From contig CAKSLQ010000008.1 of NCBI GenBank assembly GCA_934467415.1, positions 17,889-81,888 of the forward strand: a DNA stretch of 64,000 nucleotides, in the 5' to 3' direction. The notes beneath the pieces are model-generated. The model was not told the DNA's origin. It worked only from the letters and a program-made list of their open reading frames with translations, and did not search any database. The position numbers and the translations under genes are program-made. Positions 9,864 through 25,659 of this stretch are shown piece after piece; within the stretch, counting starts at the first letter, position 1, and each line of letters starts with the position of its first letter. Source of the DNA: an uncultured Eubacteriales bacterium (GTDB lineage Bacteria; Bacillota; Clostridia; Oscillospirales; CAG-272).

Positions 9864-9880
9864 GTATCCAAAACAATGAC

Positions 9881-9924: not shown

Positions 9925-11139
9925 TTTACTAAGCAGCCAGTCGATCAGATTAACCTTACGAATGCCGTCATAATCTGCCGTACGGAACACCTCATCCAGC
10001 GTGAGCAGCAGCTTGGGATGATTGTCCCGAATCGCCCGCAGCGGTGCAAGCTCCCGCCCGAGCGTCCCCTCATCCAGCGTGGATGCGCAAACCTGATAAT
10101 AGGCGGTTCCGCCCTCGCCGATGGTTACAAAATCAATCTCCGTATCTTCGGCCTGCTGCCCGACGCAAACTGTATCACCGCGCCGCAGGAGTTCCAGATA
10201 CACGATATTTTCGAGTACGTGTCCGATGTCCGATTCCTTGTTTTGCACGAGCATATTCCGGAATCCAATATCTGCCGTGTAATATTTATTCTGCTGTGCC
10301 AAAAACTGTTTTCCCTTGATGTCGTAGCGGTTGACTTCATAAAAGAGGAGGCTCTCGGTCAGACCTTCCAGATAGCGGCTGACGGTTTTGGGGTCGATCG
10401 TCATCCCCCCCGAACGCATGGTATTTGCAATTTTGGTCAGCGAAAAGCGATTGCCGATGTTGTGCATCAAAAACTTCGTCAGATTCTTCAGCGCAGTGAT
10501 ATCCGTGATTTTCTTCCGCTCGACAACATCGCGCAGCAGAACCGTGTCATAGATGCCGCGCAGGTATTCCTGCGCTTCTTTTTGTCCGTAATTATGGCTG
10601 ACGATAAAGGGAAATGCGCCAAGCTCCAGATAGAGATTGAATTTTCCCGCATCCGAAAGCGCCGCACGCTCGCCCTCAAGCCCGCTGCAAAACTCCGCAA
10701 AGGAAAGCGGCAGCATGGAAAGCTCCAGATACCTGCCGGTCAGCCTTGTGGAGAGCTCGCCGGACAGAAAGTAAGCGTTTGACCCGGTGATATACACATC
10801 GCAGTTGCTCTTGATAAACAGACTGTCAACCGCCTTCTCATAATCCTTGACATGCTGGATCTCATCGAGGAAAATATAATTCATTTTATCCGGCAGCAGC
10901 CTTGCCGTCACCGCCGTATAAAGCGCATGATAATCCAAAAGCTCTTCATAGCGGATGTCTTCAAAATTGATCATCGTGATCTGCGCCTCGGTTACCCCCT
11001 GTGACAGCAGATATGTGCGGTACATCTCAAACAAAGTGGACTTGCCGCAGCGACGCACACCGGTCACAACCTTGATCAGCTGTTCATCCCGATGGCGGAT
11101 CAGAAAATTCAGATAGGCCTCCCGTTTCACCTGTTTCAT
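9922..11139 (-). CDS. AAA+ ATPase with a DUF4143-type C-terminal domain (COG1373-like)
   Basis: Walker A GVRRCGKST, Walker B IFLDEIQ, 405 aa, family-typical layout. Visibly lower GC than its neighbours. Confidence 0.8.
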   Translation of the reverse strand: MKQVKREAYLNFLIRHRDEQLIKVVTGVRRCGKSTLFEMYRTYLLSQGVTEAQITMINFEDIRYEELLDYHALYTAVTARLLPDKMNYIFLDEIQHVKDYEKAVDSLFIKSNCDVYITGSNAYFLSGELSTRLTGRYLELSMLPLSFAEFCSGLEGERAALSDAGKFNLYLELGAFPFIVSHNYGQKEAQEYLRGIYDTVLLRDVVERKKITDITALKNLTKFLMHNIGNRFSLTKIANTMRSGGMTIDPKTVSRYLEGLTESLLFYEVNRYDIKGKQFLAQQNKYYTADIGFRNMLVQNKESDIGHVLENIVYLELLRRGDTVCVGQQAEDTEIDFVTIGEGGTAYYQVCASTLDEGTLGRELAPLRAIRDNHPKLLLTLDEVFRTADYDGIRKVNLIDWLLSK

Positions 11140-11202
11140 GTCTGCACCCCCCGATTCAGTATCTCCATTGTAATCCGTATTTTATGCAAAGTCAAGTATT
11201 TT

Positions 11203-11258
11203 AAGGAATGAAATCCTTGAAATACTGTTTTTTTATGATTTTAAGGATTGCATTCCTT
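11203..11258. promoter_or_regulatory. Inverted pair of 16-nt near-palindromes in the AT-rich region upstream of the phage-like cluster (candidate operator)
   Basis: aaggaatgaaatcctt (11203-11218) and aaggattgcattcctt (11243-11258). The second is the reverse complement of the first with one mismatch. Confidence 0.4.
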
Positions 11259-11368
11259 AAAATTAGAGCAAAATTTCGGAAACCTGCCGAAAAATCCCGA
11301 CTTTGATCCGTAGAATCAAAGATGCGGCGGGGTGCGAACCGCCGACAACGGGAAAGGAGGAAACCGAA

Positions 11369-11737
11369 ATGGCAAACGAAACGAAGAAACGCGCGGACGA
11401 GACCGGAGCCGCGGACGCCGAAGCGCCCGCAAAGCTCGCGGGCGACGGCATCGCCGACGAGCGCGAGGTGCTGGAGACGCTGACGCGCATCCTGCGCCGC
11501 GAGGCGACCGAGGACACGGTGGTCAAGCTGCGCACCGAGTCCCGCTCGACCGACATGTGCGGCGAGGCGGTGGTTGAGCGGAGCGAAAAGGTCGAGATCG
11601 TGAAGACGCGGCCGCGCCTCGCGGACGTAACCCGCGCGGCCGAGCTCGTCGGCAAGTATCACGGCATGTTCGGCGAGCGCCTGGAAGGCAGCATCGCCCT
11701 GCCGCTGATCATCTGCGGTGAGGACGAGCTGAAATGA
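11369..11737 (+). CDS. Phage terminase small subunit
   Basis: ATG at 11369 follows AAGGAGG. Position is immediately 5' of the large terminase with an ATGA overlap. C-terminal AAELVGKYHGMF is typical of small terminases. Confidence 0.65.
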   Translation: MANETKKRADETGAADAEAPAKLAGDGIADEREVLETLTRILRREATEDTVVKLRTESRSTDMCGEAVVERSEKVEIVKTRPRLADVTRAAELVGKYHGMFGERLEGSIALPLIICGEDELK

Positions 11738-13068
11738 ACCGCCTGTACCTGCCCGACATTGTCGGCGGCGGGTACGACGCATTCTGGCACTCCCGCGCCC
11801 GCTATCGCGTGGTGAAGGGTTCGCGCGCATCCAAAAAGAGCAAGACGACCGCACTGTGGTATATCTACAACCTGATGAAATTTCCGGCGGCAAATCTGCT
11901 CGTGGTGCGGCGCACCTACCGCAGTCTCGAACGCTCGGCCTTTGCCGAGCTGAAGTGGGCGATCCGCAGGCTCGGCGCGGAAAAGTATTTTGAAAGCAAG
12001 ACCGCGCCGCTGGAGATTGTCTGCAAGGCGACGGGGCAGCGTATCTTCTTTGCGGGCCTCGACGACCCGCTGAAGCTGACCTCCATCACGGCGGCGACGG
12101 GGGTGCTCTGCTGGATGTGGATCGAGGAGGCCTACGAGATCGAAAGCGAGGACGCCTTCGACACGCTGGACGAATCTATCCGCGGCAGCGTGCCGGACGG
12201 GCTGTTCAAGCAGATCACGCTGACCTTCAATCCCTGGAGCGCCGACCACTGGCTGAAGCGGCGGTTCTTCGATGTGCAAAGCCCCGACATCTTCGCCATG
12301 ACCGTAAACTACACGGTCAACGAATGGCTGGATGAGGCGGACAAGCGCGTTTTCGAGGACATGCGCCTGCGCGACCCCGAACGATACCGCGTTTGCGGTC
12401 TGGGAGAATGGGGGATCGGCGGCGGGCAGTTTTTCCCCGAATTCCGCAGTGACATCCACGTCATCCCGCCGACGCCGCTCGCGGACGGCGTGCGCATCTT
12501 CCGCGCGATCGACTACGGTCTCGACGCGCTGGCCTGCCTGTTCATCGCACTGGACTCGACCGGGCGCGCCGTGGTCTTCCGCGAGGTGTATGCGCACGAT
12601 CTGATCGTCTCCGCCGCGGCGGAGGCAATCCGCGAGGCGAGCGAGGGACTCGCGGTCTACCGCACCTTTGCGCCGCCCGACCTGTGGTCGCGCCAGAAGG
12701 ACAGCGGCAAGAGCATTGCCACCCTGTTTGAACGGCACGGCGTGCCGCTCACGCAGTCGGACAACAACCGTGTTGGCGGATGGCTTGCGCTGAAGGAATG
12801 GCTGCGCGTACAGCCCATGCCGGAGGGCGGCGAGGGCGCGCGGCTGCAAATCTTCTCCACCTGCACGGATCTGCTCCGCTGTTTGCCGTCGCTGCTAAGC
12901 GACCCGAAGCGCATCGGCGACTGCCGGACCGAGCCGCATGAGATCACCCACCTGCCCGACGCGCTGCGCTACTTTGCGGTCATGCAGGCCGACCCGCCGC
13001 GTGCGGCGGCAGCCGCACCGCGCCTGCGCGACTTTACGGGCGGCGGGCGGCGCAAAAACCGATTTTAA
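11734..13068 (+). CDS. Phage terminase large subunit (PBSX-type)
   Basis: 444 aa. N-terminal ATPase (VVKGSRASKKSKT Walker A-like, WIEEA Walker B-like). C-terminal nuclease-like half. Confidence 0.9.
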   Translation: MNRLYLPDIVGGGYDAFWHSRARYRVVKGSRASKKSKTTALWYIYNLMKFPAANLLVVRRTYRSLERSAFAELKWAIRRLGAEKYFESKTAPLEIVCKATGQRIFFAGLDDPLKLTSITAATGVLCWMWIEEAYEIESEDAFDTLDESIRGSVPDGLFKQITLTFNPWSADHWLKRRFFDVQSPDIFAMTVNYTVNEWLDEADKRVFEDMRLRDPERYRVCGLGEWGIGGGQFFPEFRSDIHVIPPTPLADGVRIFRAIDYGLDALACLFIALDSTGRAVVFREVYAHDLIVSAAAEAIREASEGLAVYRTFAPPDLWSRQKDSGKSIATLFERHGVPLTQSDNNRVGGWLALKEWLRVQPMPEGGEGARLQIFSTCTDLLRCLPSLLSDPKRIGDCRTEPHEITHLPDALRYFAVMQADPPRAAAAAPRLRDFTGGGRRKNRF

Positions 13069-13084
13069 GCGAAAGAGGTAAACC

Positions 13085-13288
13085 ATGAAGCAAATCACGA
13101 TTCACAAGGCGCGGCACATCTGTTCGATGCCCGCCTGCGGCTGCACCGACACCTACCGGATCTCGGGCAGCCCGAACACGCTCGGCGGTTTTTATCTCTG
13201 CGGCGACTGCATCGAAACGCTCGCGCGTCTTGCCGGTGTGACCCCGCAGAAAAAGCCCCGCCGCGCGGCAAAGGAGGCGGACGCATGA
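13085..13288 (+). CDS. Small Cys-rich phage protein (zinc-ribbon-like), function unknown
   Basis: RBS agagg upstream. 67 aa with CSMPACGC...CGDC. Confidence 0.45.
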   Translation: MKQITIHKARHICSMPACGCTDTYRISGSPNTLGGFYLCGDCIETLARLAGVTPQKKPRRAAKEADA

Positions 13289-13506
13289 GCATTCTGACCG
13301 CCGTCGCGCTGCTGGAGCTGCTGGCCATCCTGTTTCTTGCGCTGATGCTCTCCCTCTCCGAGGAGCGCGGCGCAAAGCTGCGCGCGGCATGGCTGCACCG
13401 GGACGCGCCCGGGGACGGTGCGCGCCGCCGCACCCGCCATCTCTCGCCGCACCGCGCGGCGATCCGGCGCATGAAGAGAAAGGAGGACGCCTGCGGGCGG
13501 CAGTAA
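13285..13506 (+). CDS. Small membrane-anchored phage protein, function unknown
   Basis: ATGA overlap with the preceding ORF. N-terminal hydrophobic helix, basic tail. Confidence 0.35.
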   Translation: MSILTAVALLELLAILFLALMLSLSEERGAKLRAAWLHRDAPGDGARRRTRHLSPHRAAIRRMKRKEDACGRQ

Positions 13507-13509
13507 AGC

Positions 13510-15393
13510 ATGACACTGTTCAAATTCAAGGAAAAGACCAGACCGCGCGGCGAGTACAAGGAGGATATCCTCGCCATGCTCGACGCGGAATGCCGCCGCC
13601 GCCACGACGAGCGCCGCCCGCTGGAGCTTCGCTGGATGCTCTCGGCCGACTTCTTCTCGGGGCATCAGTACTGCGACATCAACCCCTACAACACCGAGCT
13701 GGAGGACTATACCCCGCCCTTCGACTACATGGAGCGCGGCGTGTACAACCGCATCGCGCCCCTGGTCGAGACCCGCATCGCCAATTTCAAGTCGCTCGAC
13801 TTCTCGATGGAGGTTCACCCCGCGACCTGCGAGGCCTCGGACTACGAAAAGAGCCTGGTTGCCACGCGCCTGCTCTCGCAGACGCAGTACAAATGCGGCT
13901 TTGCCGACAAGCTCGACAACCTCATTCTGTGGAGCGAGCTGTGCGGCACGGCGTTTCTCCTCTCCTGGTGGGACCGGAATGCGGGCGACGCCGTCCGCGT
14001 CGGCGAGCGGCGCGTGCCGCTCGGCGATCTCGACTTCGGCGTGCTGACGCCGTATGAGGTCCTGCCCGAAAGCATCTACAAGGAGAACCTCGACGACCAG
14101 AGCTCGGTCATCCTCGAGCAGGTGGTGCGTGTGGAGGAAGTGGATCGCCGCTTCGGCGTGCGGGTGAAGCCCTGCCGCGCCGAAACGCTGGGCATCACGC
14201 CCGCGGCGGGCGTCGGCGGCTTCGGCTATGTCGGCACGACGCTCGGCATGACGACCCGCACCGCGGAAAACTCCACCCTGCTGCGCACCTATCTCGAAAA
14301 GGCGAACGCGCGCTACCCCTCCGGCCGCATGATTATCGCCACGCCCGACCGCATCCTCTACTACGGCACATTGCCGATCGACGGCTATCCGCTCGCCGTG
14401 CTGCGCTGCAAGCGCGTGCCCGGCATGTTCTTCGGCCGCTCGGTCATCGAGGATCTGATCCCGCTGCAGCGCGCCTACAACGGCGTGAAAAACAAGCTGC
14501 ACGACTACATCCGCTCGCTTTCGCTGAATCCCCTGCTCGTCCCCGAGGGGTCGATCGGCGACGTGGACGAGCTGGCCGCAAACGGCGTCGCCCCCGGCGA
14601 CATCGTCGAGTACGACCCGACGCGCGGCGAGCCGAAGCCTCTCTCCGCACCGCAGATGCCCTCCGGCATCTTCGAGGAGTGTGACAATCTGGCGCGCGAG
14701 ATGGAGTATGCGGCGGGGCTGTCCCACCTCGGCGCCACCGGCAACAACCAGTCCACCCTCACCAGCGCGACCGCAATCGAGCGCCTGCGCGAGATCGACG
14801 GCGTGCGCCTCGCGCTGACCGGCGACAACATCCGCGCGGCAATCCTCGCGGCGGCGAAGATCTGGCTGAAGCTCTACCGGGCGCACGGCAGCGTGACGCA
14901 CATCGAGAAGATGGTCGGCAGCTACGACACGGCGGCGACCTTCACCTGGCGCGCGGACGACATCAATTCCTACGACGTGGTATTCGAGAGCGAAAATGCG
15001 CTGCTGCACAGCGACGATACGCAGCTGTCCGCCATCCGCGCCGGCATTGAGCTCGGGCTTTTTGCGGGCGAAGACGGCAAAATTCCGCGCAGTGTGCGCA
15101 AAAAGCTGCTCTGCCGGATGCACATCGGCGATTTCGTCCGCACGCTCTACGAGGACGAGCTGCAAAATGCGGCGGCGCGGCGCGAAAACCTGCGCCTGAT
15201 GAAGGGCGAGACCCTGCCCGTCGGCATCTGCGACGACCACGAGCTGCATCTTGCGGCGCACCGCCGCGCGGCGCTGGACTACGCCTATGACAAGCTGCGC
15301 CGGAAAAATCCGGCCGCCGCGCAGGCGCTGGAAGCGCACATCGCCCTGCACACCGAAAAACTGAACCTTGCAAAGGAGAAACAAAATGCCTAA
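13510..15393 (+). CDS. Phage portal protein
   Basis: 627 aa, positioned directly after the terminase module. Portal-like sequence character and size. Confidence 0.75.
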   Translation: MTLFKFKEKTRPRGEYKEDILAMLDAECRRRHDERRPLELRWMLSADFFSGHQYCDINPYNTELEDYTPPFDYMERGVYNRIAPLVETRIANFKSLDFSMEVHPATCEASDYEKSLVATRLLSQTQYKCGFADKLDNLILWSELCGTAFLLSWWDRNAGDAVRVGERRVPLGDLDFGVLTPYEVLPESIYKENLDDQSSVILEQVVRVEEVDRRFGVRVKPCRAETLGITPAAGVGGFGYVGTTLGMTTRTAENSTLLRTYLEKANARYPSGRMIIATPDRILYYGTLPIDGYPLAVLRCKRVPGMFFGRSVIEDLIPLQRAYNGVKNKLHDYIRSLSLNPLLVPEGSIGDVDELAANGVAPGDIVEYDPTRGEPKPLSAPQMPSGIFEECDNLAREMEYAAGLSHLGATGNNQSTLTSATAIERLREIDGVRLALTGDNIRAAILAAAKIWLKLYRAHGSVTHIEKMVGSYDTAATFTWRADDINSYDVVFESENALLHSDDTQLSAIRAGIELGLFAGEDGKIPRSVRKKLLCRMHIGDFVRTLYEDELQNAAARRENLRLMKGETLPVGICDDHELHLAAHRRAALDYAYDKLRRKNPAAAQALEAHIALHTEKLNLAKEKQNA

Positions 15394-15955
15394 GTATCAG
15401 ATCCCCACCCTGGATTTTGAGGCGGTGTCGGCGATGGACGCCGATGCACGCACGGCGGCGCTGGACGCCTACCGCGCCGAGGTCGCCGCACTCGGCGACG
15501 CGCTGGACGCCGATGAACAGAACGGCGAGGCGCAGCAGAATGCGCTGGCCGCCGCCCGCTACGACGCGGCGAAGTATAAGCTGGCGAGCGACAAGACCTG
15601 CGCGGGCTTCGCCGACGCGATGGACGAGATCGAAGCCGTCATAGCCGAGACGCCGGCGCTCGCGTCCATGCCGGACGAGGACCGTCTGCGCACCGCCTAC
15701 TACATCGTGCGCGGCAAGCGTCCCGCCCCTGCGCCCGCACCCGCGCCGAGCGCCGAGGAGCTCTTCGCCGCGCTCGAAAAGAACCCGGCAGCCATGCGCC
15801 TCGCGGAGGCGCGGATGCTGGAGATGCTCGGCGCAGACAGCGCGCCCGCGCTCATGTCAAGTGCCGGGAGCGCCTCCGCCCCAGCCACCGTCCGCGAAAA
15901 GCCGAAGACCATTGACGAGGCGTCCGGCCTCGCCCGCGCCGCCTTCGGCATCTGA
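15386..15955 (+). CDS. Candidate scaffolding protein
   Basis: ATG at 15386 follows AAGGAG. Ala/Glu/Asp-rich, helical-looking, 189 aa, located between portal and capsid. Confidence 0.5.
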   Translation: MPKYQIPTLDFEAVSAMDADARTAALDAYRAEVAALGDALDADEQNGEAQQNALAAARYDAAKYKLASDKTCAGFADAMDEIEAVIAETPALASMPDEDRLRTAYYIVRGKRPAPAPAPAPSAEELFAALEKNPAAMRLAEARMLEMLGADSAPALMSSAGSASAPATVREKPKTIDEASGLARAAFGI

Positions 15956-15993
15956 CCCGAATTCATTTCAAAACACGAAAGGAAACAAACAAA

Positions 15994-17202
15994 ATGGCAC
16001 AGATTCTGACGAAACTCGAAGCGATCCTCAAGGACAAGTACCAGCCCGCCCTGACCAACCAGATCAACACCGAGCCCTCCCCCTTCCTCGAAAAGATCCG
16101 CAAGGTCAACCTCACGAACAACACCATCCGCTGCGCCGCGCCCATCGGCATCAACGGCGGCTTCGGCTTCGGCGCGGAGGGCGTCGGCACCCCGAAGGCG
16201 GGCGCACAGCGCTACGCGCAGTTTGAGATCGACGCGGTGGACATGTATGTCGATCTTCAGATCTCCAACAAGACCATTGCGCTTGCATCGAGCAACGCAT
16301 CCTCGATGATCAACGCCCTTGACGGCGAGATCAAGGGCTCGTATGCGGCGGCCAAGTGGAACATCAGCCGCGCCCTCTTCGGCGACGGCTCGGGCAAGCT
16401 GGCCACCGTCACGGCGGCGACGGCCTCCGGCTCGAACACGGTGCTCACGCTGGACAGCGTGAAGCGCGTGGTCGAGGGCCTGCGCATCGACCTCTACGAC
16501 GTCGGGACGGGCGGCGCGGTGACCGCCGCCGCCACCGGCGCGGGCAAGCGCATCCTCTCGGTGGACCGTGCAAACAAGACGATCACGGTGGAGGGCAGCG
16601 TCACGCTGACCGGCACGACCGGCTTCATCACGGTGCAGGGCAGCTACAACCGGGAGATCACGGGTCTCGGCGCGATCTTCACCGGGAACTCGATCTACGG
16701 CCTTGCCAAGAGCGAGAACCCGTGGCTCTGCCCGACCGTGGTGGATGCAAACCACGACCTCACCGACCTCGTGCTCTACCGCGGCATCAAGGAGGCCAAG
16801 GACTACAAGGGCGCGAACATCGACCTCGTGATGATGGGTGACGCCGCCTTCCTCGCCTACCAGGACTACATCCACACGAACAACGTCACGGTGGCGGAGA
16901 AGCACCACTTCGTCGGCGGCGCGGTCGGCTACAAGGTGCTGGTCGGCTCGAACGAGGTCGTCATCGTCAACGAGCGCTTCGTCCCCGAAAACGAGGTCTG
17001 GGGCGTGGACACCTCGACCTTCTACCTCGAGGCAACGCCGTGGAGCTTCATGGAGAAGGACGGCGGCATCTTCGTGCCGATGCCCGACACCTCCATCTTC
17101 CGCGCGCTGCTCGCCTCCTACGGCAACCTGATGTGTACGAATCCCGGCGGCGCACTGCGCATCACGAACGCAAACGCGGCGGCGCAGACCACCGGCGCAT
17201 AA
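15994..17202 (+). CDS. Phage major capsid protein
   Basis: 402 aa, located after the scaffold. Followed by a partial terminator, as is common after highly expressed capsid genes. Confidence 0.75.
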   Translation: MAQILTKLEAILKDKYQPALTNQINTEPSPFLEKIRKVNLTNNTIRCAAPIGINGGFGFGAEGVGTPKAGAQRYAQFEIDAVDMYVDLQISNKTIALASSNASSMINALDGEIKGSYAAAKWNISRALFGDGSGKLATVTAATASGSNTVLTLDSVKRVVEGLRIDLYDVGTGGAVTAAATGAGKRILSVDRANKTITVEGSVTLTGTTGFITVQGSYNREITGLGAIFTGNSIYGLAKSENPWLCPTVVDANHDLTDLVLYRGIKEAKDYKGANIDLVMMGDAAFLAYQDYIHTNNVTVAEKHHFVGGAVGYKVLVGSNEVVIVNERFVPENEVWGVDTSTFYLEATPWSFMEKDGGIFVPMPDTSIFRALLASYGNLMCTNPGGALRITNANAAAQTTGA

Positions 17203-17234
17203 ACCGAAACACAGAGCGGCAGTGACCTGACGCG

Positions 17235-17262
17235 AAGGGGATGGCGCTGCCATCCCCTTTTG
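17235..17262 (+). terminator. Hairpin/terminator downstream of the capsid gene
   Basis: aaggggatggc-gct-gccatcccctt followed by tt. Confidence 0.55.
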
Positions 17263-17293
17263 CGCGGCCGCTCATAAACTGAAAGGAGACCCT

Positions 17294-17632
17294 ATGTGTC
17301 TGCATAAACTTTACGCGGATCTCGTTGTCCTCACGGGGACGGAGTTTCCGCTGCCGCATTTCTTTGTCGCGGTGGATGCCGTCTGCCGCGGCTGGCTTGC
17401 CAAGTACCCGCAAAAGCTGCTCTGCGCGGGTGAATACACGCCGCCGACCGCGCTTGCCGACGTCCTGCCGCTTGCCGACTGCCTGTACCCCGCCCTGCTC
17501 GACAGCGTGGCGGGCCGGCTGACGGGCGACGCCGCAGCGGCGGCACGCGGCACGGAGGCGGCGGAAAACGCCTATCTTGCGCTCTGGCGCGCCGCCGCGC
17601 GCGGCAAACGGAAAAGGGGGGACAACTGGTGA
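17294..17632 (+). CDS. Phage structural protein, candidate head-completion/connector (112 aa)
   Basis: AAGGAG RBS. Call rests on position after the capsid gene; no recognisable motif. Confidence 0.4.
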   Translation: MCLHKLYADLVVLTGTEFPLPHFFVAVDAVCRGWLAKYPQKLLCAGEYTPPTALADVLPLADCLYPALLDSVAGRLTGDAAAAARGTEAAENAYLALWRAAARGKRKRGDNW

Positions 17633-18189
17633 GTGACAATACCGCTGCAAAGACCACGGTCGGCGCGCTGCTCGATGAAGTGAACGCCGCCTTTGCCGAC
17701 AGCTTCACACTGCCGGACGGCTTTCTCACAGATACCTATAACCACCTTGCCGCCGCGCTCGCCCTGCGGGAGCCGACGGCCGACGGCGAAATGACCGTCA
17801 CGGCCAAGGACGGCAAGCTCACGACCGGGCTTGTCCCCGCGCAGTACCGCCGCGTCTTTTTCGGCGATGCGGAATGCCTGCGCGGCTCGACCACACTCTG
17901 CGCGCTGCTGCCCGACTTCCCGATCTGCGCGCCGGGCGACGACGGCAGTGCCGCCGTCACGCTTGACGGCGACTACACGATTCACTACCGAAAACTGCCC
18001 GACGTCGTCACGGCAGAGAGCGCCGCGGTGGCCCCGGTCAGCCTGCGCGACCTGCCCTATCTGCATGCGGCGCTCTCCGCCGCCGTCTGCCGCCACATCG
18101 GCGACGCGGACGCGGCGGCCGCCTGCGAGGCCGACGCTGCGCGCGCCCTTGCCGCACGCGCGGCGGCGGGCGGGAGGATACCGGGATGA
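17629..18189 (+). CDS. Phage structural protein, candidate adaptor (186 aa)
   Basis: GTG start overlaps the preceding stop (GTGA). Size and position resemble a podovirus adaptor; this is inference only. Confidence 0.4.
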   Translation: MSDNTAAKTTVGALLDEVNAAFADSFTLPDGFLTDTYNHLAAALALREPTADGEMTVTAKDGKLTTGLVPAQYRRVFFGDAECLRGSTTLCALLPDFPICAPGDDGSAAVTLDGDYTIHYRKLPDVVTAESAAVAPVSLRDLPYLHAALSAAVCRHIGDADAAAACEADAARALAARAAAGGRIPG

Positions 18190-20081
18190 AGCGCACCGAT
18201 ATCACCGCATTTTCCGGCCTTTCCCCGCACCGCTTTGCAAACGGGATGCTCGCGGAGGCCGACCATGTGCGTCTGCGGGGCGACAGCGCGATCGAATCGC
18301 TCGACGCCGCCGTCGATCTGTACGACGCGGGTGCGGGCGCGCTGCTCCCGCCCGGCGTCTACACCACGAGCGACTGCTACGACCCCGACTATGAGACCTA
18401 TGTCACAAAAAGCTGGGTCTTCGCGCACATCGCACCGGAGAGCACGCTCGGCACGGCGGATTTCAAGGGCGACCTCCGCTTTCTCGTCGCGCCCGCCGAA
18501 GAATACGGCAAGAACGCGGACGGCTACCGGCACATCGTCGCCGCCTTCTGCCACGGCGACGAGCTCTGCATCCTGTACGACACCTCGATGAACCTCATCG
18601 AGGAGCGCACCGACCTGACGGTGGACGGCTACAACAACGGGACGGCCGCCCAGTTTGTCTCGCTCGACACCGAATCGGCGGGGACGGGCGTGTGGGTGCG
18701 GACGCTGACCCAGCTGCTGCTCGACCGCTATCTGCCCTCCGGCACGGTGAAGACCGAGCTGATCCGCAGCTCGCTGCAAACCCAGACCACGCTGACGGGC
18801 AAATACGAGACGCACCGCACGCTCGTTTCGCTCAAGGGCAGCGGCGTTTACCACTATGTCACGGAAGACTACGCGCCCTCGCTCGGCGGCAGCTACCGGA
18901 TCTACTTCGACAGACTCTACACCGATCACTACGCCACGCTGGCCGACGACTATCCGCTCCATACCTACGGCTACCCGGAGCGGCTGCGCAAGGTGAGCTT
19001 CTGCCTGTGGGCGGACAACACGACCGCCGTAGACATCTCCCGCCGCTTTCTGCTGCTGCCCGAGATGCTGGAGCTGCGGAGCGGCGACCCCGCCTATACG
19101 GTGGATGTGCCGGAGAGCATCTCCCCCGTGCTGAACGCAGGCGTACAGCTGTTCGGCCGCCTGTACGGCATCAACGAAAGCGAGATCCACGCCTCGAAAA
19201 ACGGCACGATCCTCACCTTTACCACGCCGACCGCGGCAGTCACCGACGACCCGAATGCGGCGTGGTGCGACACGATCAAGGGCGCGGACGAAGCCTTCAC
19301 GGCGATCACCGCCTTTGACGGCAAGGTCATCGCCTTCACGGCGCGCTCGATGCTGACCGTACACGGGCAGGCGCTTCCCTTTGAGCTCTCCTACGTCGGC
19401 GCATACGGCTGCCTTCGTGCGGAGGCGCTCGCCGCGCACGAAAAATACCTGTATTTCGTATCCGGGGACGGTGTGATGCGCTACGACGGCACACGGGTGA
19501 CGTCGCTTGACGCGCCGCTCGCGCCCGGCGGCTATGCGGGCGCGGAGCTGATGTGCACGGGCGACCTGCTGCTGCTCTACGTTCCCGGCGCGGGCGGCGT
19601 CTGGCTCTACGACATCGCAGGCGGCGGCTGGAGCTTCCGCCGCGCGGCGGGCGACCTGATCTTTCCCGGCGATAACCGGGAGAGCGCGCATTTTTGCGAC
19701 GTGCTGCTGCAAAACACCGGAAACGGCTTCCGCCCCCTGCATCTGTCCGGCGCGGACGGCAGCTTTTCGCTGTCGGTCGCCGTCGCCTTTGCGGGCAGGC
19801 GGCGGCTGCACGGTGTCGCCGTGACCGCCGCCCTGTCGGCGGGCGCCGTGCTGTCGGTCTGCGGTGCGGACGGCCGCGTGCTGCACAGCTTTACCGCGAC
19901 GGATGGCCGCGTGCGCACCTATTTTGCCGCGCTGCGCGGCGTCCGGCTCGACAGCGGGACGGTCCGCCTGTCGGGCAGCGGACACGTCCGCATCTTCGGC
20001 CTCTCGCTGATGTCGGAGGAAATACCCGCGCTGCGGCGGCGCATCGTCCCGCAGACAAAAAAAGGAGGAACACAGACATGA
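18186..20081 (+). CDS. Large phage structural protein, candidate short-tail/nozzle or baseplate-like protein (631 aa)
   Basis: ATGA overlap and GGGAGG RBS. Repetitive beta-strand-looking segments; no identifiable catalytic motif. Confidence 0.45.
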   Translation: MKRTDITAFSGLSPHRFANGMLAEADHVRLRGDSAIESLDAAVDLYDAGAGALLPPGVYTTSDCYDPDYETYVTKSWVFAHIAPESTLGTADFKGDLRFLVAPAEEYGKNADGYRHIVAAFCHGDELCILYDTSMNLIEERTDLTVDGYNNGTAAQFVSLDTESAGTGVWVRTLTQLLLDRYLPSGTVKTELIRSSLQTQTTLTGKYETHRTLVSLKGSGVYHYVTEDYAPSLGGSYRIYFDRLYTDHYATLADDYPLHTYGYPERLRKVSFCLWADNTTAVDISRRFLLLPEMLELRSGDPAYTVDVPESISPVLNAGVQLFGRLYGINESEIHASKNGTILTFTTPTAAVTDDPNAAWCDTIKGADEAFTAITAFDGKVIAFTARSMLTVHGQALPFELSYVGAYGCLRAEALAAHEKYLYFVSGDGVMRYDGTRVTSLDAPLAPGGYAGAELMCTGDLLLLYVPGAGGVWLYDIAGGGWSFRRAAGDLIFPGDNRESAHFCDVLLQNTGNGFRPLHLSGADGSFSLSVAVAFAGRRRLHGVAVTAALSAGAVLSVCGADGRVLHSFTATDGRVRTYFAALRGVRLDSGTVRLSGSGHVRIFGLSLMSEEIPALRRRIVPQTKKGGTQT

Positions 20082-20818
20082 CGATCACAGCCGAAGTCAA
20101 GGGCTGCACCATTGCCCTGCGCCAGCCGCCGCTTGCAAGCGGCACGGTCGGCGCGGCGACGGTGGCCTTTCACTTTGACGCAGACTGGGACGGCACCGTG
20201 CGCACGGCGGTCTTCCGCACGCACGGCAAAAACGTGCTGGTGCTGCTTGAAAATGACCGATGCGCCCTGCCGCCCGAGGCGGCGGCGGGCGGCGACGTGC
20301 TGCTCGGCGCGTTCGGCGTATGCGGCGAAAAGACGCTGACCACGCCGTTCTGCCGCCTCGCCGTTGCCAAAGGCGTGCCGACGGCCGGCGATACCGCAGA
20401 CGGCGTGACGCCGTCGCTCGGCGCGCAGCTGCTGGCCGCCTACGGGCGGCTGACCGCCGCCACGGCGGAGGCCGCCGCAGGCAATGCCGCCGCCGTGCGC
20501 GTCACCGAGGACGGGGGCGGCCTGCACTTTGCCTTCACCCTGCCGAAGGGTGAAAAAGGCGACACAGGTGCAAAGGGCGACAAGGGAGACCCCGGTGAAA
20601 AAGGCGCAGCAGGCGAAAAAGGCGACAAGGGAGACCCCGGCGCACCCGGCAAGGATGGCACGGACGGCAAGGACGGCACACCCGGTACACCCGGCGCAGA
20701 CGGCGCGCCCGGTGCGGACGGTCATACACCCGTGCGCGGCACGGACTACTGGACGGCGGCCGACATCGCCGAGATCAAGAGCTATGTCGATACTGCCATC
20801 CTCGGGGGTGCATGGTGA
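20078..20818 (+). CDS. Collagen-repeat tail fibre protein
   Basis: AGGAGG RBS, ATGA overlap. 19 uninterrupted G-X-Y triplets (GEKGDTGAKGDKGDPGEKG...GADGAPGADG) encoded at 20549-20722. Confidence 0.75.
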   Translation: MTITAEVKGCTIALRQPPLASGTVGAATVAFHFDADWDGTVRTAVFRTHGKNVLVLLENDRCALPPEAAAGGDVLLGAFGVCGEKTLTTPFCRLAVAKGVPTAGDTADGVTPSLGAQLLAAYGRLTAATAEAAAGNAAAVRVTEDGGGLHFAFTLPKGEKGDTGAKGDKGDPGEKGAAGEKGDKGDPGAPGKDGTDGKDGTPGTPGADGAPGADGHTPVRGTDYWTAADIAEIKSYVDTAILGGAW

Positions 20819-21471
20819 TGAGCATCAACGCAAAAATGACCGCCATCGCCGACGCGATCCGCGCGGTGACCGGCGGCACAGCCCCGCTCTCTCTCGACGC
20901 CATGGCGGCGGCGATCCCCGCCGTCCGCGCCGCGGGCGAAGCGGCTGCGGCCGCCGCCTGCGCGGGGAAGCACTTCGTCGGCGTTGTCCGCGGCGGCGGC
21001 GCGAAGTCGCTGTCGGTGCAGATGCCGTTTGACCCGGACGCGCTCGCCGTGATGGCGGCGGACATGCGCACCGTCGGCGGGCAGGTCGTTTTCTTCAACT
21101 TTCTGCCGCGTTCGGTCAGCCATTATATCGGCCTGTATTGCTACACGGGCGCGGGCAGCACGTCGATATCCTCTTTCGGCAGTCTGACGCGCGCGAAGCT
21201 GGATCAGGCCGTCTATGCGGATGGGGTGTTCACGCTCTCGCTCGCGGACTCCGTCGCCGCCGCATTCGACGCGGACACCGACTATATCGTCCTCGCCTCG
21301 AAGACCGAGACGCGAACCGACAAGGAAATTCTGACCGATTTTGTCGCAGGGCTGGCCGACACGGGCGGCAGCGTCACGGTCTCGCAGGCGGCGGTGAACG
21401 CCGCCGTCACCGATGCGGAATGGGCAACGCTGATCGCGACGAAGCCGAACCGCACATTTGTATTGAAATAG
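20812..21471 (+). CDS. Fibre-associated/distal tail protein (219 aa)
   Basis: Overlaps the fibre gene by 7 nt. N-terminal INAKMTAIADAIR...LSLDAMAAAI resembles segments seen in phage fibre proteins. Confidence 0.45.
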   Translation: MVMSINAKMTAIADAIRAVTGGTAPLSLDAMAAAIPAVRAAGEAAAAAACAGKHFVGVVRGGGAKSLSVQMPFDPDALAVMAADMRTVGGQVVFFNFLPRSVSHYIGLYCYTGAGSTSISSFGSLTRAKLDQAVYADGVFTLSLADSVAAAFDADTDYIVLASKTETRTDKEILTDFVAGLADTGGSVTVSQAAVNAAVTDAEWATLIATKPNRTFVLK

Positions 21472-21482
21472 GAGGAACAGAC

Positions 21483-21656
21483 ATGACAACAAGACAGGTT
21501 CTGTGCGCCGACGACGGCATGCTGCTGACGGACGGCGAGACGTTCTGCCGCGCGGTCTACCTCGCGGTCGGCGCGGATGCGGGCGCGTGGACGGAGATCC
21601 CCGCGGCCGAAGCCCCGGACGAGGACGTGCCGCTGCCCGGAGGTGAGGACGCATGA
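21483..21656 (+). CDS. Small phage protein (57 aa), unknown
   Basis: Strong AGGAGG RBS 7 nt upstream of the ATG. In frame within track ORF 21138..21656. Confidence 0.4.
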   Translation: MTTRQVLCADDGMLLTDGETFCRAVYLAVGADAGAWTEIPAAEAPDEDVPLPGGEDA

Positions 21657-21898
21657 CGTGGGAGACCATTGCGGCGCTCCTCACCCTGCTCGGCGGCTTT
21701 GTTTCGGTCGGCACGCTCGTCTGGAAGCTCGCGGCCGCCGTCAACAAGCTGGAGTGCGCGGTGAGTTCGCTGCACGAGTGGGTGGAAAAGCAGTCCGACA
21801 AAAACCGCAATTTTTATGAAAAGCTGGAGAACCACGAAAAGCGGCTCTACCGGCTGGAAAGCAGAGGTGAACACCATGATCGTCCCCTTTACAACTGA
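21653..21898 (+). CDS. Membrane-anchored coiled-coil protein of the lysis cassette
   Basis: ATGA overlap. N-terminal TM (IAALLTLLGGFVSVGTLVW) followed by a heptad-like helix. Confidence 0.5.
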   Translation: MTWETIAALLTLLGGFVSVGTLVWKLAAAVNKLECAVSSLHEWVEKQSDKNRNFYEKLENHEKRLYRLESRGEHHDRPLYN

Positions 21899-22451
21899 CC
21901 GTGTGCGGCTGACGAGCGGCTACGGCAGCCGCACCGTCAACGGCAAAATGGATTTTCACGCGGGCTACGACCTTGTGGGCATCGGCTCGCACAACGTGAC
22001 CGCCGCCGTCTCCGGCAAGGTGGCGGTGTCGCGCATCATCACGGACAAGTCGAACCGCACCTGGGAGTGGGGCAACTACGTCTGCATCCGCGGCGACGAT
22101 GGGCGGTATTATTACTACTGCCACCTCGCCTCCCGTGCGGTCGCCAAGGGCGAGGCCGTCCGCGCGGGGGATGTGCTCGGCGTGATGGGCAGCACCGGCT
22201 ACGCCTTCGGCGCGCACCTGCACTTCGAGGTGCGGGAGGCGGACGGCAGGACGACGGTAAACCCGGAGGCGGTGCTCGGCATCCCGAACCATGAGGGCGT
22301 TTACACCGCCGAAACATCCACGCTGGACGCCGACCTTGCAAAACTGGTAGCGGCGAAGATCATCACCTCGCCGGACTACTGGAAGAAGACTGCGCCGACC
22401 GTGCGCTATCTGCCGGAGCTGCTGCACAACATGGCGGAGGCGGTGCGATGA
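21876..22451 (+). CDS. M23-family metallopeptidase (candidate endolysin)
   Basis: ATG at 21876 follows agaggtg. HxxxD (HAGYD) and HxH (HLHFEV) zinc motifs. ~70-aa C-terminal extension. Confidence 0.8.
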   Translation: MIVPFTTDRVRLTSGYGSRTVNGKMDFHAGYDLVGIGSHNVTAAVSGKVAVSRIITDKSNRTWEWGNYVCIRGDDGRYYYYCHLASRAVAKGEAVRAGDVLGVMGSTGYAFGAHLHFEVREADGRTTVNPEAVLGIPNHEGVYTAETSTLDADLAKLVAAKIITSPDYWKKTAPTVRYLPELLHNMAEAVR

Positions 22452-22747
22452 AGATTGTCTTTGAGCGGACGGGCAGAGGCAAAAAGCGGCGCACGCTTGC
22501 CGAATTCTCCAAGCGGGTGGTGGCGGCGCTGATTGCCGTATGGTTTGCTGGTGCGCTGCTCGGCGCGGCGGTCGTCGCGGTGCAGACCCTGCGCGGCGAC
22601 ATGACCGTCAACCTCTCCGACCTGCTCTTGTACATCGGCGCGCCGATGACCGGCGGCATCGTCACCTATCTCCTCAAGAGCGCATACGAGAATAAGGAGA
22701 AAATCAAAAGCGGCGCGGCGGGCGGTGAACCGTTCGACGCGCCGTGA
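22448..22747 (+). CDS. Two-TM holin-like protein
   Basis: ATGA overlap with the peptidase gene. Two hydrophobic helices, charged C-terminus. Confidence 0.5.
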   Translation: MKIVFERTGRGKKRRTLAEFSKRVVAALIAVWFAGALLGAAVVAVQTLRGDMTVNLSDLLLYIGAPMTGGIVTYLLKSAYENKEKIKSGAAGGEPFDAP

Positions 22748-22761
22748 GGGGAGGTGAATCC

Positions 22762-22974
22762 ATGGAAAGCGCACTGAAGAAGGTCTCCAGCCGCAAGTTT
22801 CTCGTCGCGGTGAGCGGCGTGGTCAGCGGCATCGTGCTGATTGCGGGCGGCAATACCACCGAAGGCGTGACGGCGATCGTCACCTCGGTTGTCGCCTATC
22901 TCGCGGCCGAGGGGCTGGTAGACATGGCGGCGGTGAAGAAGCAGAGCGAAATCACGGGCAAATCCGAGGACTGA
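22762..22974 (+). CDS. Holin-like two-TM protein
   Basis: ATG at 22762 follows GGGGAGGTG. 70 aa, two TM helices, charged tail. Confidence 0.55.
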   Translation: MESALKKVSSRKFLVAVSGVVSGIVLIAGGNTTEGVTAIVTSVVAYLAAEGLVDMAAVKKQSEITGKSED

Positions 22975-22989: not shown

Positions 22990-23017
22990 TTTCAAACGCG
23001 CAAACATATGCTATAAT
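22990..23017 (+). promoter_or_regulatory. Extended -10 promoter directed toward the aminopeptidase gene
   Basis: TTTCAA-16 nt-TGcTATAAT. The -10 abuts and overlaps hairpin copy 1. Confidence 0.55.
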
Positions 23018-23047
23018 AGTCTCGCGGCAGTCGCCGCGAGACTATTA
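23016..23047. repeat. 32-nt hairpin, copy 1
   Basis: atagtctcgcggcagtcgccgcgagactatta. Identical to 23209-23240; 12-13-bp stem. Confidence 0.85.
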
Positions 23048-23208
23048 AAATCAGTCGAAAAACGCTGTTTTTCGACTGGTGCAAGGGCGTTTGCTCGCGC
23101 CGTCCTCACCGGACGCGCCCTTTAAGGAGTAAAAAAGCCGGCGGAGCCGCCTTTTTTACAAACTTAATTTGCATTTGGCCATGCACAACGCTTGTTCGCC
23201 AAGCCCAG

Positions 23209-23246
23209 ATAGTCTCGCGGCAGTCGCCGCGAGACTATTATTTTTA
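23209..23246 (+). terminator. 32-nt hairpin copy 2 plus U-tract: candidate attenuator/terminator 12 nt upstream of the aminopeptidase start
   Basis: Same 32-mer followed by ttttta. RBS ggagga and the ATG follow. Confidence 0.55.
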
Positions 23247-23257
23247 CGGAGGACCAC

Positions 23258-24484
23258 ATGAAGGTCACGACTTTGAAGAAATATGCAGAGCTGATCGCGC
23301 GCCGCGGCGTCAACCTCAAAAAGGGCGACGAGGTCGTCGTCACCGCCGAGCTGGATCAGCCGAAATTCGTGGAATATGTTGTCGAGGCCTGCTACAAGGC
23401 AGGCGCCAAGAAGGTCACGGTGGATTTTGTGCACCAGCCGCTGCAAAAGCTGCACGTCAAGTACCGCAGTCTGAAAACGCTCGGCAAGGTTGAAGACTGG
23501 GAGGTCGCCCGCCTCGAGCACTACATCGGGACGCTGCCCGCCCGCATCTACCTCATCAGCGAAGACCCGGACGGCCTGCGCGGCATGGACCGTGAGAAGA
23601 ACGCCAAGGGCGCACAGGCGCGCAGCAAGATCATCAAGCCCCTGCGCGACAAGATGGACAACCGCTACAAGTGGTGCATCGCGGCCGTCCCCGGCAAGGC
23701 CTGGGCGCAGAAGATGTTCCCCGGCATCCGCGCGTCCGCCGCAATCGAGAAGCTGTGGGAAGCCATTCTCTACACCTCCCGCGCCGACGGCAACGATCCG
23801 ATCGCCGCGTGGGACGCGCACAACGCTGACATCGCCGCGCGCTGCGCATACCTCAATTCGCTCGGCATCGACACGCTGCATTACACCGCGTCGAACGGCA
23901 CGGACTTCACGGTCGGGCTCATTGACCGCTCCGAATTCTGCGGCGGCGCGGAGGCCATCATCGGCGGCGAGATCTTCAACGCCAACATTCCCTCCGAGGA
24001 GGTCTACACCAGCCCGATGCGCGGCCGCGCCGAAGGCATCGTCTACTCGACCAAGCCCCTCTCCTACAACGGCCAGCTGATCGAGAACTTCTCCATCCGC
24101 TTCCGCGAGGGCAAGGTGACCGAGGTGCACGCCGAGAAGAACGAGGAGATGCTGAAGACCATCATCTCGATGGACGAGGGCGCCTCTTATCTCGGCGAAG
24201 TCGCGCTCGTGCCCTATTCGTCCCCCATCAATCAGCTGGGCTATCTGTTCTACAACACGCTGTTTGACGAAAACGCGGTCTGCCATCTGGCGCTCGGCGA
24301 GGGGTATACCAACACGCTGCGCGGCTTTGCGGACATGACGCGCGAGGAATGCACCGCCGCCGGCATCAACGACTCGATGATCCACGAGGACTTTATGATC
24401 GGCGCGCCCGATCTCTCGATCGTCGCCACGCTTCGCGACGGGACGAAGAAGGACATCTTCAAGAACGGCACCTGGGCATTTTGA
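23258..24484 (+). CDS. M29-family aminopeptidase (AmpS/PepS-like)
   Basis: 408 aa. N-terminal KKYAELIARRGVNLKKGDEVVV and overall family character. Confidence 0.85.
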   Translation: MKVTTLKKYAELIARRGVNLKKGDEVVVTAELDQPKFVEYVVEACYKAGAKKVTVDFVHQPLQKLHVKYRSLKTLGKVEDWEVARLEHYIGTLPARIYLISEDPDGLRGMDREKNAKGAQARSKIIKPLRDKMDNRYKWCIAAVPGKAWAQKMFPGIRASAAIEKLWEAILYTSRADGNDPIAAWDAHNADIAARCAYLNSLGIDTLHYTASNGTDFTVGLIDRSEFCGGAEAIIGGEIFNANIPSEEVYTSPMRGRAEGIVYSTKPLSYNGQLIENFSIRFREGKVTEVHAEKNEEMLKTIISMDEGASYLGEVALVPYSSPINQLGYLFYNTLFDENAVCHLALGEGYTNTLRGFADMTREECTAAGINDSMIHEDFMIGAPDLSIVATLRDGTKKDIFKNGTWAF

Positions 24485-24793: not shown

Positions 24794-24802
24794 CATTCAT
24801 CA

Positions 24803-25652: not shown

Positions 25653-25659
25653 CTTTTTC

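Follow-up and report, generated by a model that had tools for sequence, protein, structure and literature searches.

The window analyzed here is a 64,000-nucleotide (nt) stretch of DNA from an uncultured Eubacteriales bacterium (Clostridia; Oscillospirales; CAG-272; assembly GCA_934467415.1, contig CAKSLQ010000008.1, positions 17,889 to 81,888), and it contains 11.7 kb of contiguous phage genes for head, short tail and lysis, hereafter the cluster. There is good support for viewing this cluster as domesticated and as kept like an ordinary chromosomal operon. Its genes are inherited vertically under purifying selection, include a truncated small terminase gene, bear a compositional signature and are accompanied by no mobility or replication genes. 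We consider it likely that the cluster is the remnant of a temperate short-tailed phage that has been domesticated and is maintained as a particle-producing system. It most likely works as a gene transfer agent (GTA)-like, or PBSX-like, system, and the chance that it mediates genuine gene transfer is judged to be even or slightly lower. A preliminary description of this DNA had proposed a domesticated short-tailed particle module in preference to an inducible prophage, and that proposal is upheld by the intactness of the cluster in 25 species, its co-divergence with the flanking genes and the purifying selection acting on it.

The features of the cluster and of the region directly upstream are listed below, with the lengths of small products in amino acids (aa) and the basis of each assignment in parentheses.

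11278–11319, + strand: conserved promoter-like motif upstream of TerS, GGAAACCTGCCGAAAAATCCCGACTTTGATCCGTAGAATCAA (conservation in relatives)
11324–11346, + strand: GC-rich leader hairpin between the motif and the ribosome-binding site (inverted repeat)
11369–11737, + strand: small terminase TerS, oligomerization core only (Terminase_2, phrog_51)
11734–13068, + strand: large terminase TerL (Terminase_3, 3e-53)
13085–13288, + strand: 67-aa Cys-rich small protein (between TerL and portal)
13285–13506, + strand: 73-aa open reading frame (ORF) with one hydrophobic segment (ORF call)
13510–15393, + strand: portal protein of the P22/SU10 type (PF16510, P22_portal, 6.5e-15; PF23899, SU10_portal, 2.9e-9)
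15386–15955, + strand: scaffold-like protein (position and Ala/Glu-rich composition)
15994–17202, + strand: major capsid protein, podovirus type (NF033394, capsid_maj_Podo)
17294–17632, + strand: 112-aa structural protein (conserved position)
17629–18189, + strand: head-to-tail adaptor of the SU10 type, 186 aa (family membership)
18186–20081, + strand: tail nozzle with beta-propeller, 631 aa (AlphaFold2 model, Foldseek)
20078–20818, + strand: collagen-repeat tail fiber (PF01391, 6.5e-11)
20812–21471, + strand: fiber-associated protein, 219 aa (position after the fiber)
21483–21656, + strand: acidic small protein, 57 aa (conservation)
21653–21898, + strand: 81-aa lysis-cassette protein, N-terminal membrane segment and then a coiled coil (phrog_1009)
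21876–22451, + strand: M23 peptidoglycan endopeptidase (PF01551, 4e-20; phrog_3578, endolysin, 2e-26)
22448–22747, + strand: holin-like membrane protein, 99 aa (hydrophobic segment, residues 20–48; phrog_37691, 1e-6)
22744–22974, + strand: holin-like protein, 76 aa, with two membrane segments (two hydrophobic segments predicted)

According to the ORF listing of the window, 17 packed, co-directional ORFs fill positions 11369–22974, and all 17 that had been described are found there on the + strand. Head, tail, fiber and lysis genes are thus contiguous at one locus. The overlap of neighboring genes that had also been reported is confirmed, and the number of overlapping junctions is corrected by our own count from 9 to 11 of 16. 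The left end had been placed at 11203, which is too far to the left, since the genes begin at 11369 and the promoter-like motif occupies 11278–11319.

A capsid scan using one genome per GTDB species yields 25 loci, all of them in gut or rumen Clostridia metagenome-assembled genomes (MAGs). These are divided into clade A (L001–L016, capsid identity 78–95%) and clade B (L017–L025, about 62%). The cluster is collinear in all 25 species genomes, with the detected orthologs matched by tblastn over most of their length, and the same arrangement is seen on further metagenome contigs. The GC content of the carriers ranges from 46 to 64%, and that of the cluster follows its host. About 40 flanking genes are scanned against Pfam, and all those with a match are cellular, including genes for EF-P, an SLH protein, a P-type ATPase with ArsR, CarD, a Na:Ala symporter, ABC transporters, melibiase, SpoIID, a Mur ligase, SmpB, ApbE and the S10/L3 ribosomal operon. 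On metagenome contigs, the cluster follows MazG-HU-YabP-YabQ-DivIC-fumarase and precedes MacAB, or lies between Tex-CNNM and a 5'-nucleotidase gene. In five clade B species (L019, L020, L022, L023 and L024) it is situated directly upstream of the S10 operon (rpsJ-rplC).

The preliminary description had suggested looking for the cluster at the same locus in related genomes and measuring the ratio of nonsynonymous to synonymous substitution rates (dN/dS). The window's own flanks are found in the sister species L001 and in same-species contigs, and the locus is not constant across deeper subclades. In five pairs of species with common flanks, the synonymous divergence (dS) of the cluster is broadly similar to that of the flanks, as in the comparison of the window with L001 (cluster 0.28–0.70, flanks 0.31–0.55); a sixth flank-sharing pair has saturated dS. 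Cluster DNA within species is 98.4–98.6% identical, equal to the flanks, and in clade B the identity of the cluster tracks that of ribosomal proteins (Spearman rho 0.66, 10 non-independent pairs). Selection is purifying, with dN/dS values of 0.05–0.45. TerL, portal and capsid have values of 0.05–0.16 in most pairs, rising to 0.28 in L020/L024, and the adaptor, nozzle and fiber have values of 0.25–0.45 in the less diverged pairs. Between the window and L001, dN/dS is 0.12 for TerL, 0.16 for the portal and 0.10 for the capsid, which is 95% identical. With a dS like that of neighboring genes, and with intact copies in 25 species under purifying selection, the recently decayed remnant that had been named as the alternative is effectively excluded, and a self-moving element is argued against.

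The absence of integrase and replication genes and of an att duplication, which the preliminary description had emphasized, is borne out by profile scans, tblastn searches and a comparison of the cluster ends. The profile libraries used are Pfam, PHROG and NCBIfam, which are searched with the cluster genes and the flank genes at 7489–11139 and 23258–24484; the Pfam and PHROG scans detect no integrase, repressor or replication family in either set. The same three functions are not found among the approximately 40 flanking genes of relatives or in precomputed annotations, and no integrase is present within 10 kb on either side, to contig reach, in the examined relatives with at least 58% capsid identity. 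When the integrase and helicase of distant relatives are used as tblastn queries, they match neither the 64-kb window nor any of the closer loci. There are no tRNA genes in the whole window, and the longest exact word common to both cluster ends is 11 nt, which is within chance.

The base composition of the cluster differs from that of its surroundings in a specific manner. Overall GC content is 0.659 for the cluster and 0.619 for the other window genes, and the values at third codon positions (GC3) are 0.858 and 0.849. At second codon positions (GC2) the cluster of the window has 0.477 against 0.431 (P = 0.003), so that the excess sits in GC2 and not in GC3. Of 21 loci, 20 have a cluster richer in GC than its flanks, the mean difference being 4.9 points, a comparison in which the gene caller is trained on cluster genes. 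In clusters related to the alphaproteobacterial agent RcGTA, GC content is raised through first codon positions (GC1) and GC2 rather than GC3 (Kogay et al., PMC7360931), and the GC2 excess without a GC3 excess in the window is the same pattern.

The assignments of the terminases, portal, capsid, collagen fiber and M23 peptidase made earlier from the letters of the sequence are supported by Pfam, PHROG and NCBIfam profile matches. The TerS match to Terminase_2 spans profile positions 53–136 of 141, and conservation among relatives is limited to the C-terminal ~95 aa, with an N-terminus that is variable and of low complexity. A TerS family profile aligns with residues 77–146 of the phage SF6 protein G1P (3zqp), which form its oligomerization core (E = 2.9e-4). 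No counterpart of a helix-turn-helix DNA-binding domain is found in TerS by the Terminase_2 profile, the alignment of relatives or the comparison with SF6 G1P. TerL matches the PBSX-family model TIGR01547 with 118 bits relative to a cutoff of 105.

The portal also matches phrog_156 (1.7e-21). The gene for the scaffold-like protein, which has no family match in Pfam or PHROG scans, is kept between portal and capsid in all relatives. The capsid scores 124.7 bits with NF033394 capsid_maj_Podo, for which the cutoff is 80, and matches phrog_14242 (7e-43). Its homologs form at least 989 clusters at 90% identity (E ≤ 1e-5) among 8,000 candidates scored, and 1376 clusters at 50% identity are found at E ≤ 1e-3. 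The gene for the 112-aa protein holds the same position in 22 loci; the protein has no family match in the profile scans and is possibly a head-completion or connector protein.

For the products of 17294–21471, the preliminary description had proposed profile searches and structure prediction, and these match the adaptor family and the nozzle fold to podoviruses. Ten of the 16 members of the adaptor family match PF24175 (SU10_adaptor) with a best E-value of 5.4e-9, and a precomputed SU10_adaptor match is on record for the L071 ortholog. The adaptor of the window, which has no PF24175 match of its own, is 32–66% identical to clade A members and 17–22% identical to distant ones. A search of PDB sequences with the adaptor-family profile gives no match. 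The 631-aa protein is modeled with AlphaFold2 from 17 sequences, and the model has moderate confidence (predicted local distance difference test, pLDDT, 62; predicted TM-score, pTM, 0.44). Its top 25 Foldseek hits in the PDB all come from podovirus tail or portal-tail complexes, among them Pan3, SU10 7z47_G, Pa223, PhiM1, T7 7ey7_s and P22 gp10 8eap_D, with E-values of 1e-9 to 4e-6 and TM-scores that are low, about 0.2–0.3. The protein is therefore classified as a putative podovirus-type nozzle, which is a call of the fold class and not a detailed model. A tblastn search of 50,697 phage records with the nozzle gives no match. Together, the SU10_adaptor family, the nozzle model, the P22/SU10 portal and the capsid_maj_Podo capsid agree with the podovirus-like build that had been suggested for the cluster. 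No sheath, tube or tape measure is found in Pfam, PHROG and NCBIfam scans of the cluster genes.

The tail fiber also matches many PHROG tail-fiber families and is exchanged between relatives. It has no tblastn match in the sister species L001, it is either 252 or 246 aa long among same-species contigs, and its slot is filled in other loci by proteins of 483, 675 or 1468 aa. Exchange of the fiber, seen even between sister species, suggests that receptor binding is probably still of importance. The gene for the 219-aa fiber-associated protein, which has no family match in the profile scans, directly follows the fiber in a subset of loci (L003, L011–L013, L016 and L026).

The lysis cassette had been said to include three small membrane proteins, and hydrophobic segments are indeed predicted in its 81-, 99- and 76-aa products. 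The 81-aa protein has one such segment, is weakly XhlA/hemolysin-like (phrog_1009, 2.6e-7; phrog_937, hemolysin, 1.4e-3) and is conserved in clades A and B. The M23 endopeptidase, whose gene has an alternative start at 21816, is a likely endolysin by its family matches, and its slot is taken in related clusters by a GH25 muramidase or a LysM protein. The 76-aa gene is conserved in clade A and is started at ATG 22762 in other annotations. Of the remaining small genes, that for the acidic 57-aa protein is kept in L003, L011–L013 and L026. Most relatives have the 67-aa protein in the interval from TerL to portal, with identity falling to 35% in clade B; it contains six cysteines including a CGDC pair; it has no family match in the Pfam, PHROG and NCBIfam scans and is possibly zinc-binding, judging from these cysteines. 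The 73-aa ORF is poorly conserved, with partial tblastn matches in L001 and L002 only, and is possibly not a real gene.

The region upstream of TerS contains a conserved motif that does not correspond to a standard promoter. A sigma-70 promoter is rejected at this position, where no canonical one is present. Across clade A loci with GC contents of 46 to 64%, the consensus AAACTTGCCGAAnnnTCCCgAcTTT-N7-9-(g/c)ATAAT is repeated upstream of TerS; the motif can also be written AAACTTGCCGAAnnnTCCCGACTTT-N7-9-ATAAT. In the window, the motif includes the inverted repeat TTGAT-N7-ATCAA (11303–11319), and the stretch from the motif to the TerS ATG is nearly identical between the window and L001 despite a coding dS of 0.3–0.6. 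The leader hairpin at 11324–11346 is kept in the high-GC relatives L001, L002 and L013 and is followed by the TerS ribosome-binding site AAAGGAGG at 11353–11360. From this pattern we infer that positions 11278–11319 act as a promoter, and conservation of the motif suggests shared, host-integrated control of the cluster.

Other features are observed in the same region of the relatives. A palindrome, ACAGAAAT(A/T)TCTGT, flanks the motif no more than about 150 nt upstream of TerS in L003, L006, L008, L011, L016 and L027, most of which are lower-GC clade A relatives. In L003, L008 and L027 the palindrome occurs twice, once before the motif and once after the -10-like element, and it has the appearance of an operator bound by a dimeric regulator. 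The window carries the TTGAT-N7-ATCAA repeat and the GC-rich hairpin in its place. In the clade A lineage L027–L029, a gene of the Barstar family (ribonuclease inhibitor) is located about 200 nt directly upstream of TerS (e.g. L027 5068–5373), and in L010, L014 and L015 the same position is occupied by a conserved 100-aa ORF unrelated to the Barstar gene. In L003, the region upstream of the cluster (1–5132) is very AT-rich, with 35–44% GC compared with 50% for the cluster. It encodes 387- and 645-aa proteins without a Pfam match and a 239-aa ORF whose product, by eye, is similar to the N-terminus of a primase/polymerase, and it may be an unrelated mobile or defense island adjoining the cluster.

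The nearest isolated phages are lytic actinobacterial podophages, namely the Arthrobacter phage Jasmine/Adat group and Microbacterium phage Shocker. Like the cluster, they have the order portal-scaffold-capsid, with homologous portal (26% identity) and capsid (22–27%) proteins. Unlike it, they are autonomous phages of 45–47 kb that encode replication functions such as DNA polymerase and helicase. When IMG/VR is scanned with the profile of a 14-sequence capsid alignment, 31 loci are returned, several of which lie on 44–55 kb contigs with 44–50% capsid identity. Integrase-bearing members of this set (capsid identity 44–48%) share the order TerS-TerL-portal-scaffold-capsid-adaptor-nozzle-fiber-lysis with the cluster. 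In the 55-kb IMGVR_UViG_3300045988_167972, a tyrosine integrase gene lies immediately upstream of TerS (Pfam 6e-23) and a block of early genes includes a helicase with homologs in 2530 phage records; a second contig, L054, has an integrase homolog. The former also encodes 520- and 873-aa late proteins that have no equivalent in the window cluster, and the 873-aa protein of these distant phage relatives is a candidate ejection/internal-virion protein. The integrase-bearing relatives are probably the free-living ancestral type. The preliminary description held that complete phages among close relatives would speak against domestication. Integrase and helicase are found only in relatives at 44–48% capsid identity, so that the temperate relatives are all distant.

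Between the clade B cluster and rpsJ there are two extra genes, for a holin-like 100-aa protein and a 287–328-aa protein (~17.5–21 kb in the loci). A 65-aa motif of the latter recurs in the 873-aa late protein that the integrase-bearing relative encodes (pairwise E = 6e-8), and a second short common motif is visible by eye. The 287–328-aa protein may be a reduced remnant of a virion protein.

From the genes described above we infer expression, particle formation, packaged DNA content and delivery, which would proceed as follows. A host-controlled promoter, the non-sigma-70 motif at 11278–11319, would fire in a fraction of cells. Procapsids would be assembled from portal, scaffold-like protein and capsid, and a TerS without a DNA-binding domain would act with the PBSX-type TerL to fill them without sequence specificity, mostly with host DNA. 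The short tail would be completed by the SU10-type adaptor, the nozzle and the rapidly exchanged collagen-like fiber. Holin-like proteins and the M23 endopeptidase would then release the particles by lysing the producer cell, and the fiber would bind them to related cells. No part of the gene set for head, short tail or lysis is missing, and we propose that complete podovirus-like particles are built. The form of TerS gives an indirect hint that host DNA may be packaged at random.

Several points weigh against this reading. The flanks differ between deeper clade A subclades, which fits long-term rearrangement but also occasional relocation or transfer. No ejection or internal-virion protein is recognizable by profile scans in the window's clade, and DNA delivery may be impaired without one. 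A capsid that has remained T=7 could have room for all 11.7 kb of the cluster, and the argument that the cluster cannot package its own genes may fail. Every carrier is an uncultured MAG, and the cluster is known from sequence alone. The search for a distal integrase or accessory locus covered the 64-kb window alone. Finally, the nozzle gene is split into two ORFs (439 and 161 aa) in the metagenome copy L029 (7287–9133). Other contigs with a capsid identical to that of L029 have an intact nozzle of 615 aa, and the split form could be a population-level loss-of-function variant, that is, a non-producer.

PBSX-type particles, with or without DNA, could also serve to kill or lyse competitors, or to release DNA and public goods, with no productive delivery. 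The PBSX-family TerL, the weak XhlA/hemolysin likeness of the 81-aa protein and the lack of ejection proteins recognizable in Pfam and PHROG scans would suit such particles, as would the fast diversification of the fiber, which recalls the arms races of tailocins and bacteriocins. Yet purifying selection on TerL, portal and TerS is as strong as on the capsid although killing would need no DNA packaging, and the tail ends in a podovirus nozzle and not in a contractile puncturing device. We regard this as the main rival reading, though an unlikely one.

It is more improbable still that the cluster is an active mobile element that packages itself, whether as a satellite-like or capsid-forming island or as a prophage with its integrase and replication genes elsewhere or unrecognized. 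A locus that differs among deeper subclades could be explained in this way, a comparable 12.7-kb cluster has been likened to capsid-forming satellites (10.64898/2026.07.08.737213), and the relatives at 44–48% capsid identity have a tyrosine integrase next to TerS, in one case with a helicase as well. Set against this, no integrase, primase or Rep gene occurs within 10 kb on either side in the 25 genome loci and the metagenome contexts (to contig reach), neither an att-like repeat nor a tRNA is present in the window, cluster and flanks have the same dS, and the location is constant inside subclades and inside the species. The cluster also has its own tail and lysis genes, unlike capsid-forming satellites. 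An inert, decaying prophage remnant without function would agree with the many missing phage modules, the split nozzle gene of the one metagenome variant and the poor conservation of the 73-aa ORF. A neutral remnant would not stay intact over the divergence observed, where the orthologs detected in 25 species are matched over most of their length and dN/dS is 0.05–0.45 even though dS exceeds 1 in some pairs, and this reading is thereby contradicted. Overlap at most gene junctions, the conserved promoter motif and GC content that is fully ameliorated over the 46–64% range also speak against inertness, to which we give almost no credence.

The flanks of the cluster in the window agree with those named in the preliminary description: by Pfam, the left side carries two AI-2E transporters and an AAA_14/DUF4143 ATPase, and the right side begins with an M29 aminopeptidase. 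The DUF4143 ATPase had been taken as the left boundary and is rejected both as part of the element and as a fixed boundary. Its gene (9922–11139, - strand) belongs to a strain-variable, lower-GC insertion of 1.4 kb (9864–11273) that is present in the window and L037 and missing from the same-species contig L035 and the sister species L001. An inverted repeat of 26 nt is located at 11198–11263. Another DUF4143-like ATPase, identified by eye, lies just upstream of TerL in the distant locus L025 (4271–5497). Insertions may recur at this spot, or the ATPase may have a functional tie to the cluster.

On the right, a 32-nt direct repeat at 23016 and 23209 is rejected as an att site, as the two copies are both located beyond the right end of the cluster, where they bound a strain-specific insertion. 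This insertion or duplication of 193 bp separates the last cluster gene from the M29 gene (23016–23240). The perfect repeats (23016–23047 and 23209–23240) are each palindromic and form a terminator-like hairpin, and the repeat is single-copy in L035, L036 and L001. Between the M29 gene and a Peptidase_S9-like gene there is a lower-GC stretch (0.54–0.56; 24500–25700) with two ORFs, one without a match (24658–25149) and one with a weak YpsA/SLOG match (25227–25652). The stretch aligns only partly with the same-species contig L036, and in L008 the cluster is closely preceded by a version of the second ORF with 46% identity. The presence of MnmG/GidA and ParB-family genes at 36364–40217 marks the window as an origin-proximal region. 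In a species with 79% MnmG and 84% capsid identity, the longest contigs on record for MnmG and for the capsid are of equal length (72,687 bp), and the two are therefore probably on one contig, which would suggest regional synteny.

GTAs were long known almost only from Alphaproteobacteria, and work from 2024–2026 shows that much bacterial DNA is moved by them in the human gut. The sole gene cluster tied to gut GTA activity in this period is FpGTA of Faecalibacterium prausnitzii, a gut member of the Ruminococcaceae, which is called the first podovirus-like GTA (Borodovich et al., Nat Commun 2026, PMC12946183; bioRxiv 2024.11.15.623857, November 2024). The statements of the preliminary description that known GTAs are all siphovirus-like and that a short-tailed one in a Clostridia-type genome would be new are therefore outdated, as FpGTA precedes the present case (PMC12946183). 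The GTA idea is no longer new, and the cluster family described here is widespread and undescribed. GTA-like packaging is also reported in Onthomonas (Oscillospiraceae), Gemmiger, CAG-115 and Christensenellaceae, and no gene cluster for it was found in the Onthomonas and Gemmiger MAGs (PMC12946183). Comparable clusters of 12.7 kb in Butyricicoccaceae and of 14 kb in Coprocola are flagged in a 2026 preprint (10.64898/2026.07.08.737213).

Tentatively, and with somewhat more doubt than belief, we suggest that the cluster is a second, independently domesticated podovirus-derived GTA, encoded at a single locus and conserved in a broad clade of uncultured Clostridia from gut and rumen. It would then supply the missing genetic basis of the GTA-like or uniform host-DNA packaging that virus-like-particle sequencing has picked up in Oscillospiraceae and related families, for which recent studies detected no gene cluster, and its conserved, non-canonical promoter would suggest that a dedicated host regulator exists, as GafA does for RcGTA. 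The cluster family could explain packaging signals in the gut that have not been assigned. If this is true, it would serve as a marker for predicting which gut Clostridia make particles, with the capsid, TerS, promoter motif and fiber as concrete test targets, and DNA would be moved between abundant uncultured gut commensals. As an independent case of domestication, it would also allow tests of convergence in the loss of the TerS DNA-binding domain and in the rise of GC content through amino-acid choice.

The cluster can be compared with several known systems. The integrase, lysogeny switch, replication module and att sites of an inducible temperate prophage are not seen in it. Satellites of the capsid-forming phage-inducible chromosomal island (cf-PICI) type have their own integrase and replication/primase genes, have no tail genes and depend on a helper, whereas the cluster is without integrase and Rep genes and has tail and lysis genes. 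PBSX of Bacillus subtilis is about 28 kb in size and has a contractile tail and its own repressor. The cluster resembles it in the PBSX-family TerL, the weakly XhlA-like lysis protein and the Firmicute host, and differs in that the contractile tail of PBSX and of phage tail-like bacteriocins is absent, the tail consisting of an SU10-type adaptor and nozzle. PBSX packages host DNA of about 13 kb (PMC12946183 supplement).

RcGTA-type elements of Alphaproteobacteria share with the cluster phage-derived head-tail genes, vertical inheritance, slow evolution under purifying selection, high GC content driven by GC1 and GC2 (PMC7360931) and the absence of integrase and replication genes. They differ in being siphovirus-like with a tail tube and tape measure, in being distributed over multiple loci with lysis genes elsewhere, and in their protein families, which are unrelated, and host phylum. 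A structural gene cluster without its own replication, integration and excision genes, as expected of a GTA, is what the 64-kb window contains. The vertical inheritance, host co-evolution and purifying selection of GTAs are likewise found, together with a locus that differs among deeper subclades.

The closest likeness in build is to FpGTA. Its operon I (10.5 kb) encodes a TerS without a DNA-binding domain, TerL, portal, capsid and nozzle, and its operon II (5.5 kb), ~125 kb from operon I, encodes fibers, a receptor-binding protein, holin and endolysin (PMC12946183). The FpGTA capsids measure 40 nm and contain ~9 kb of packaged host DNA, and electron microscopy (EM) and proteomics data exist for FpGTA (PMC12946183). 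Both systems have a gut Clostridia host, a podovirus-like build with a tail nozzle, a TerS reported or found to be without a DNA-binding domain (PMC12946183), the gene order TerS-TerL-portal-scaffold-capsid, no integrase or replication genes and a size of ~10–12 kb. The FpGTA nozzle is annotated via PDB 8eap, and 8eap_D is also among the matches of the window nozzle. The FpGTA capsid (RCH50849.1) is annotated as N4-gp56 family, whereas the window capsid belongs to NF033394 capsid_maj_Podo and does not match any N4-gp56 model (NCBIfam, E ≤ 0.01; only NF033394 and one chance match); close homologs of the window capsid are named "phage major capsid protein" by NCBI. Between portal and capsid, FpGTA has the accession of a Prp-annotated protein, with its function listed as unknown, and the window has a scaffold-like protein without a family match. 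FpGTA is split over two operons and its particles have been observed by EM and proteomics, whereas the window cluster occupies one 11.7-kb locus and is known from its genes alone. Set apart by family annotations and locus layout only, the window cluster probably represents a lineage separate from FpGTA.

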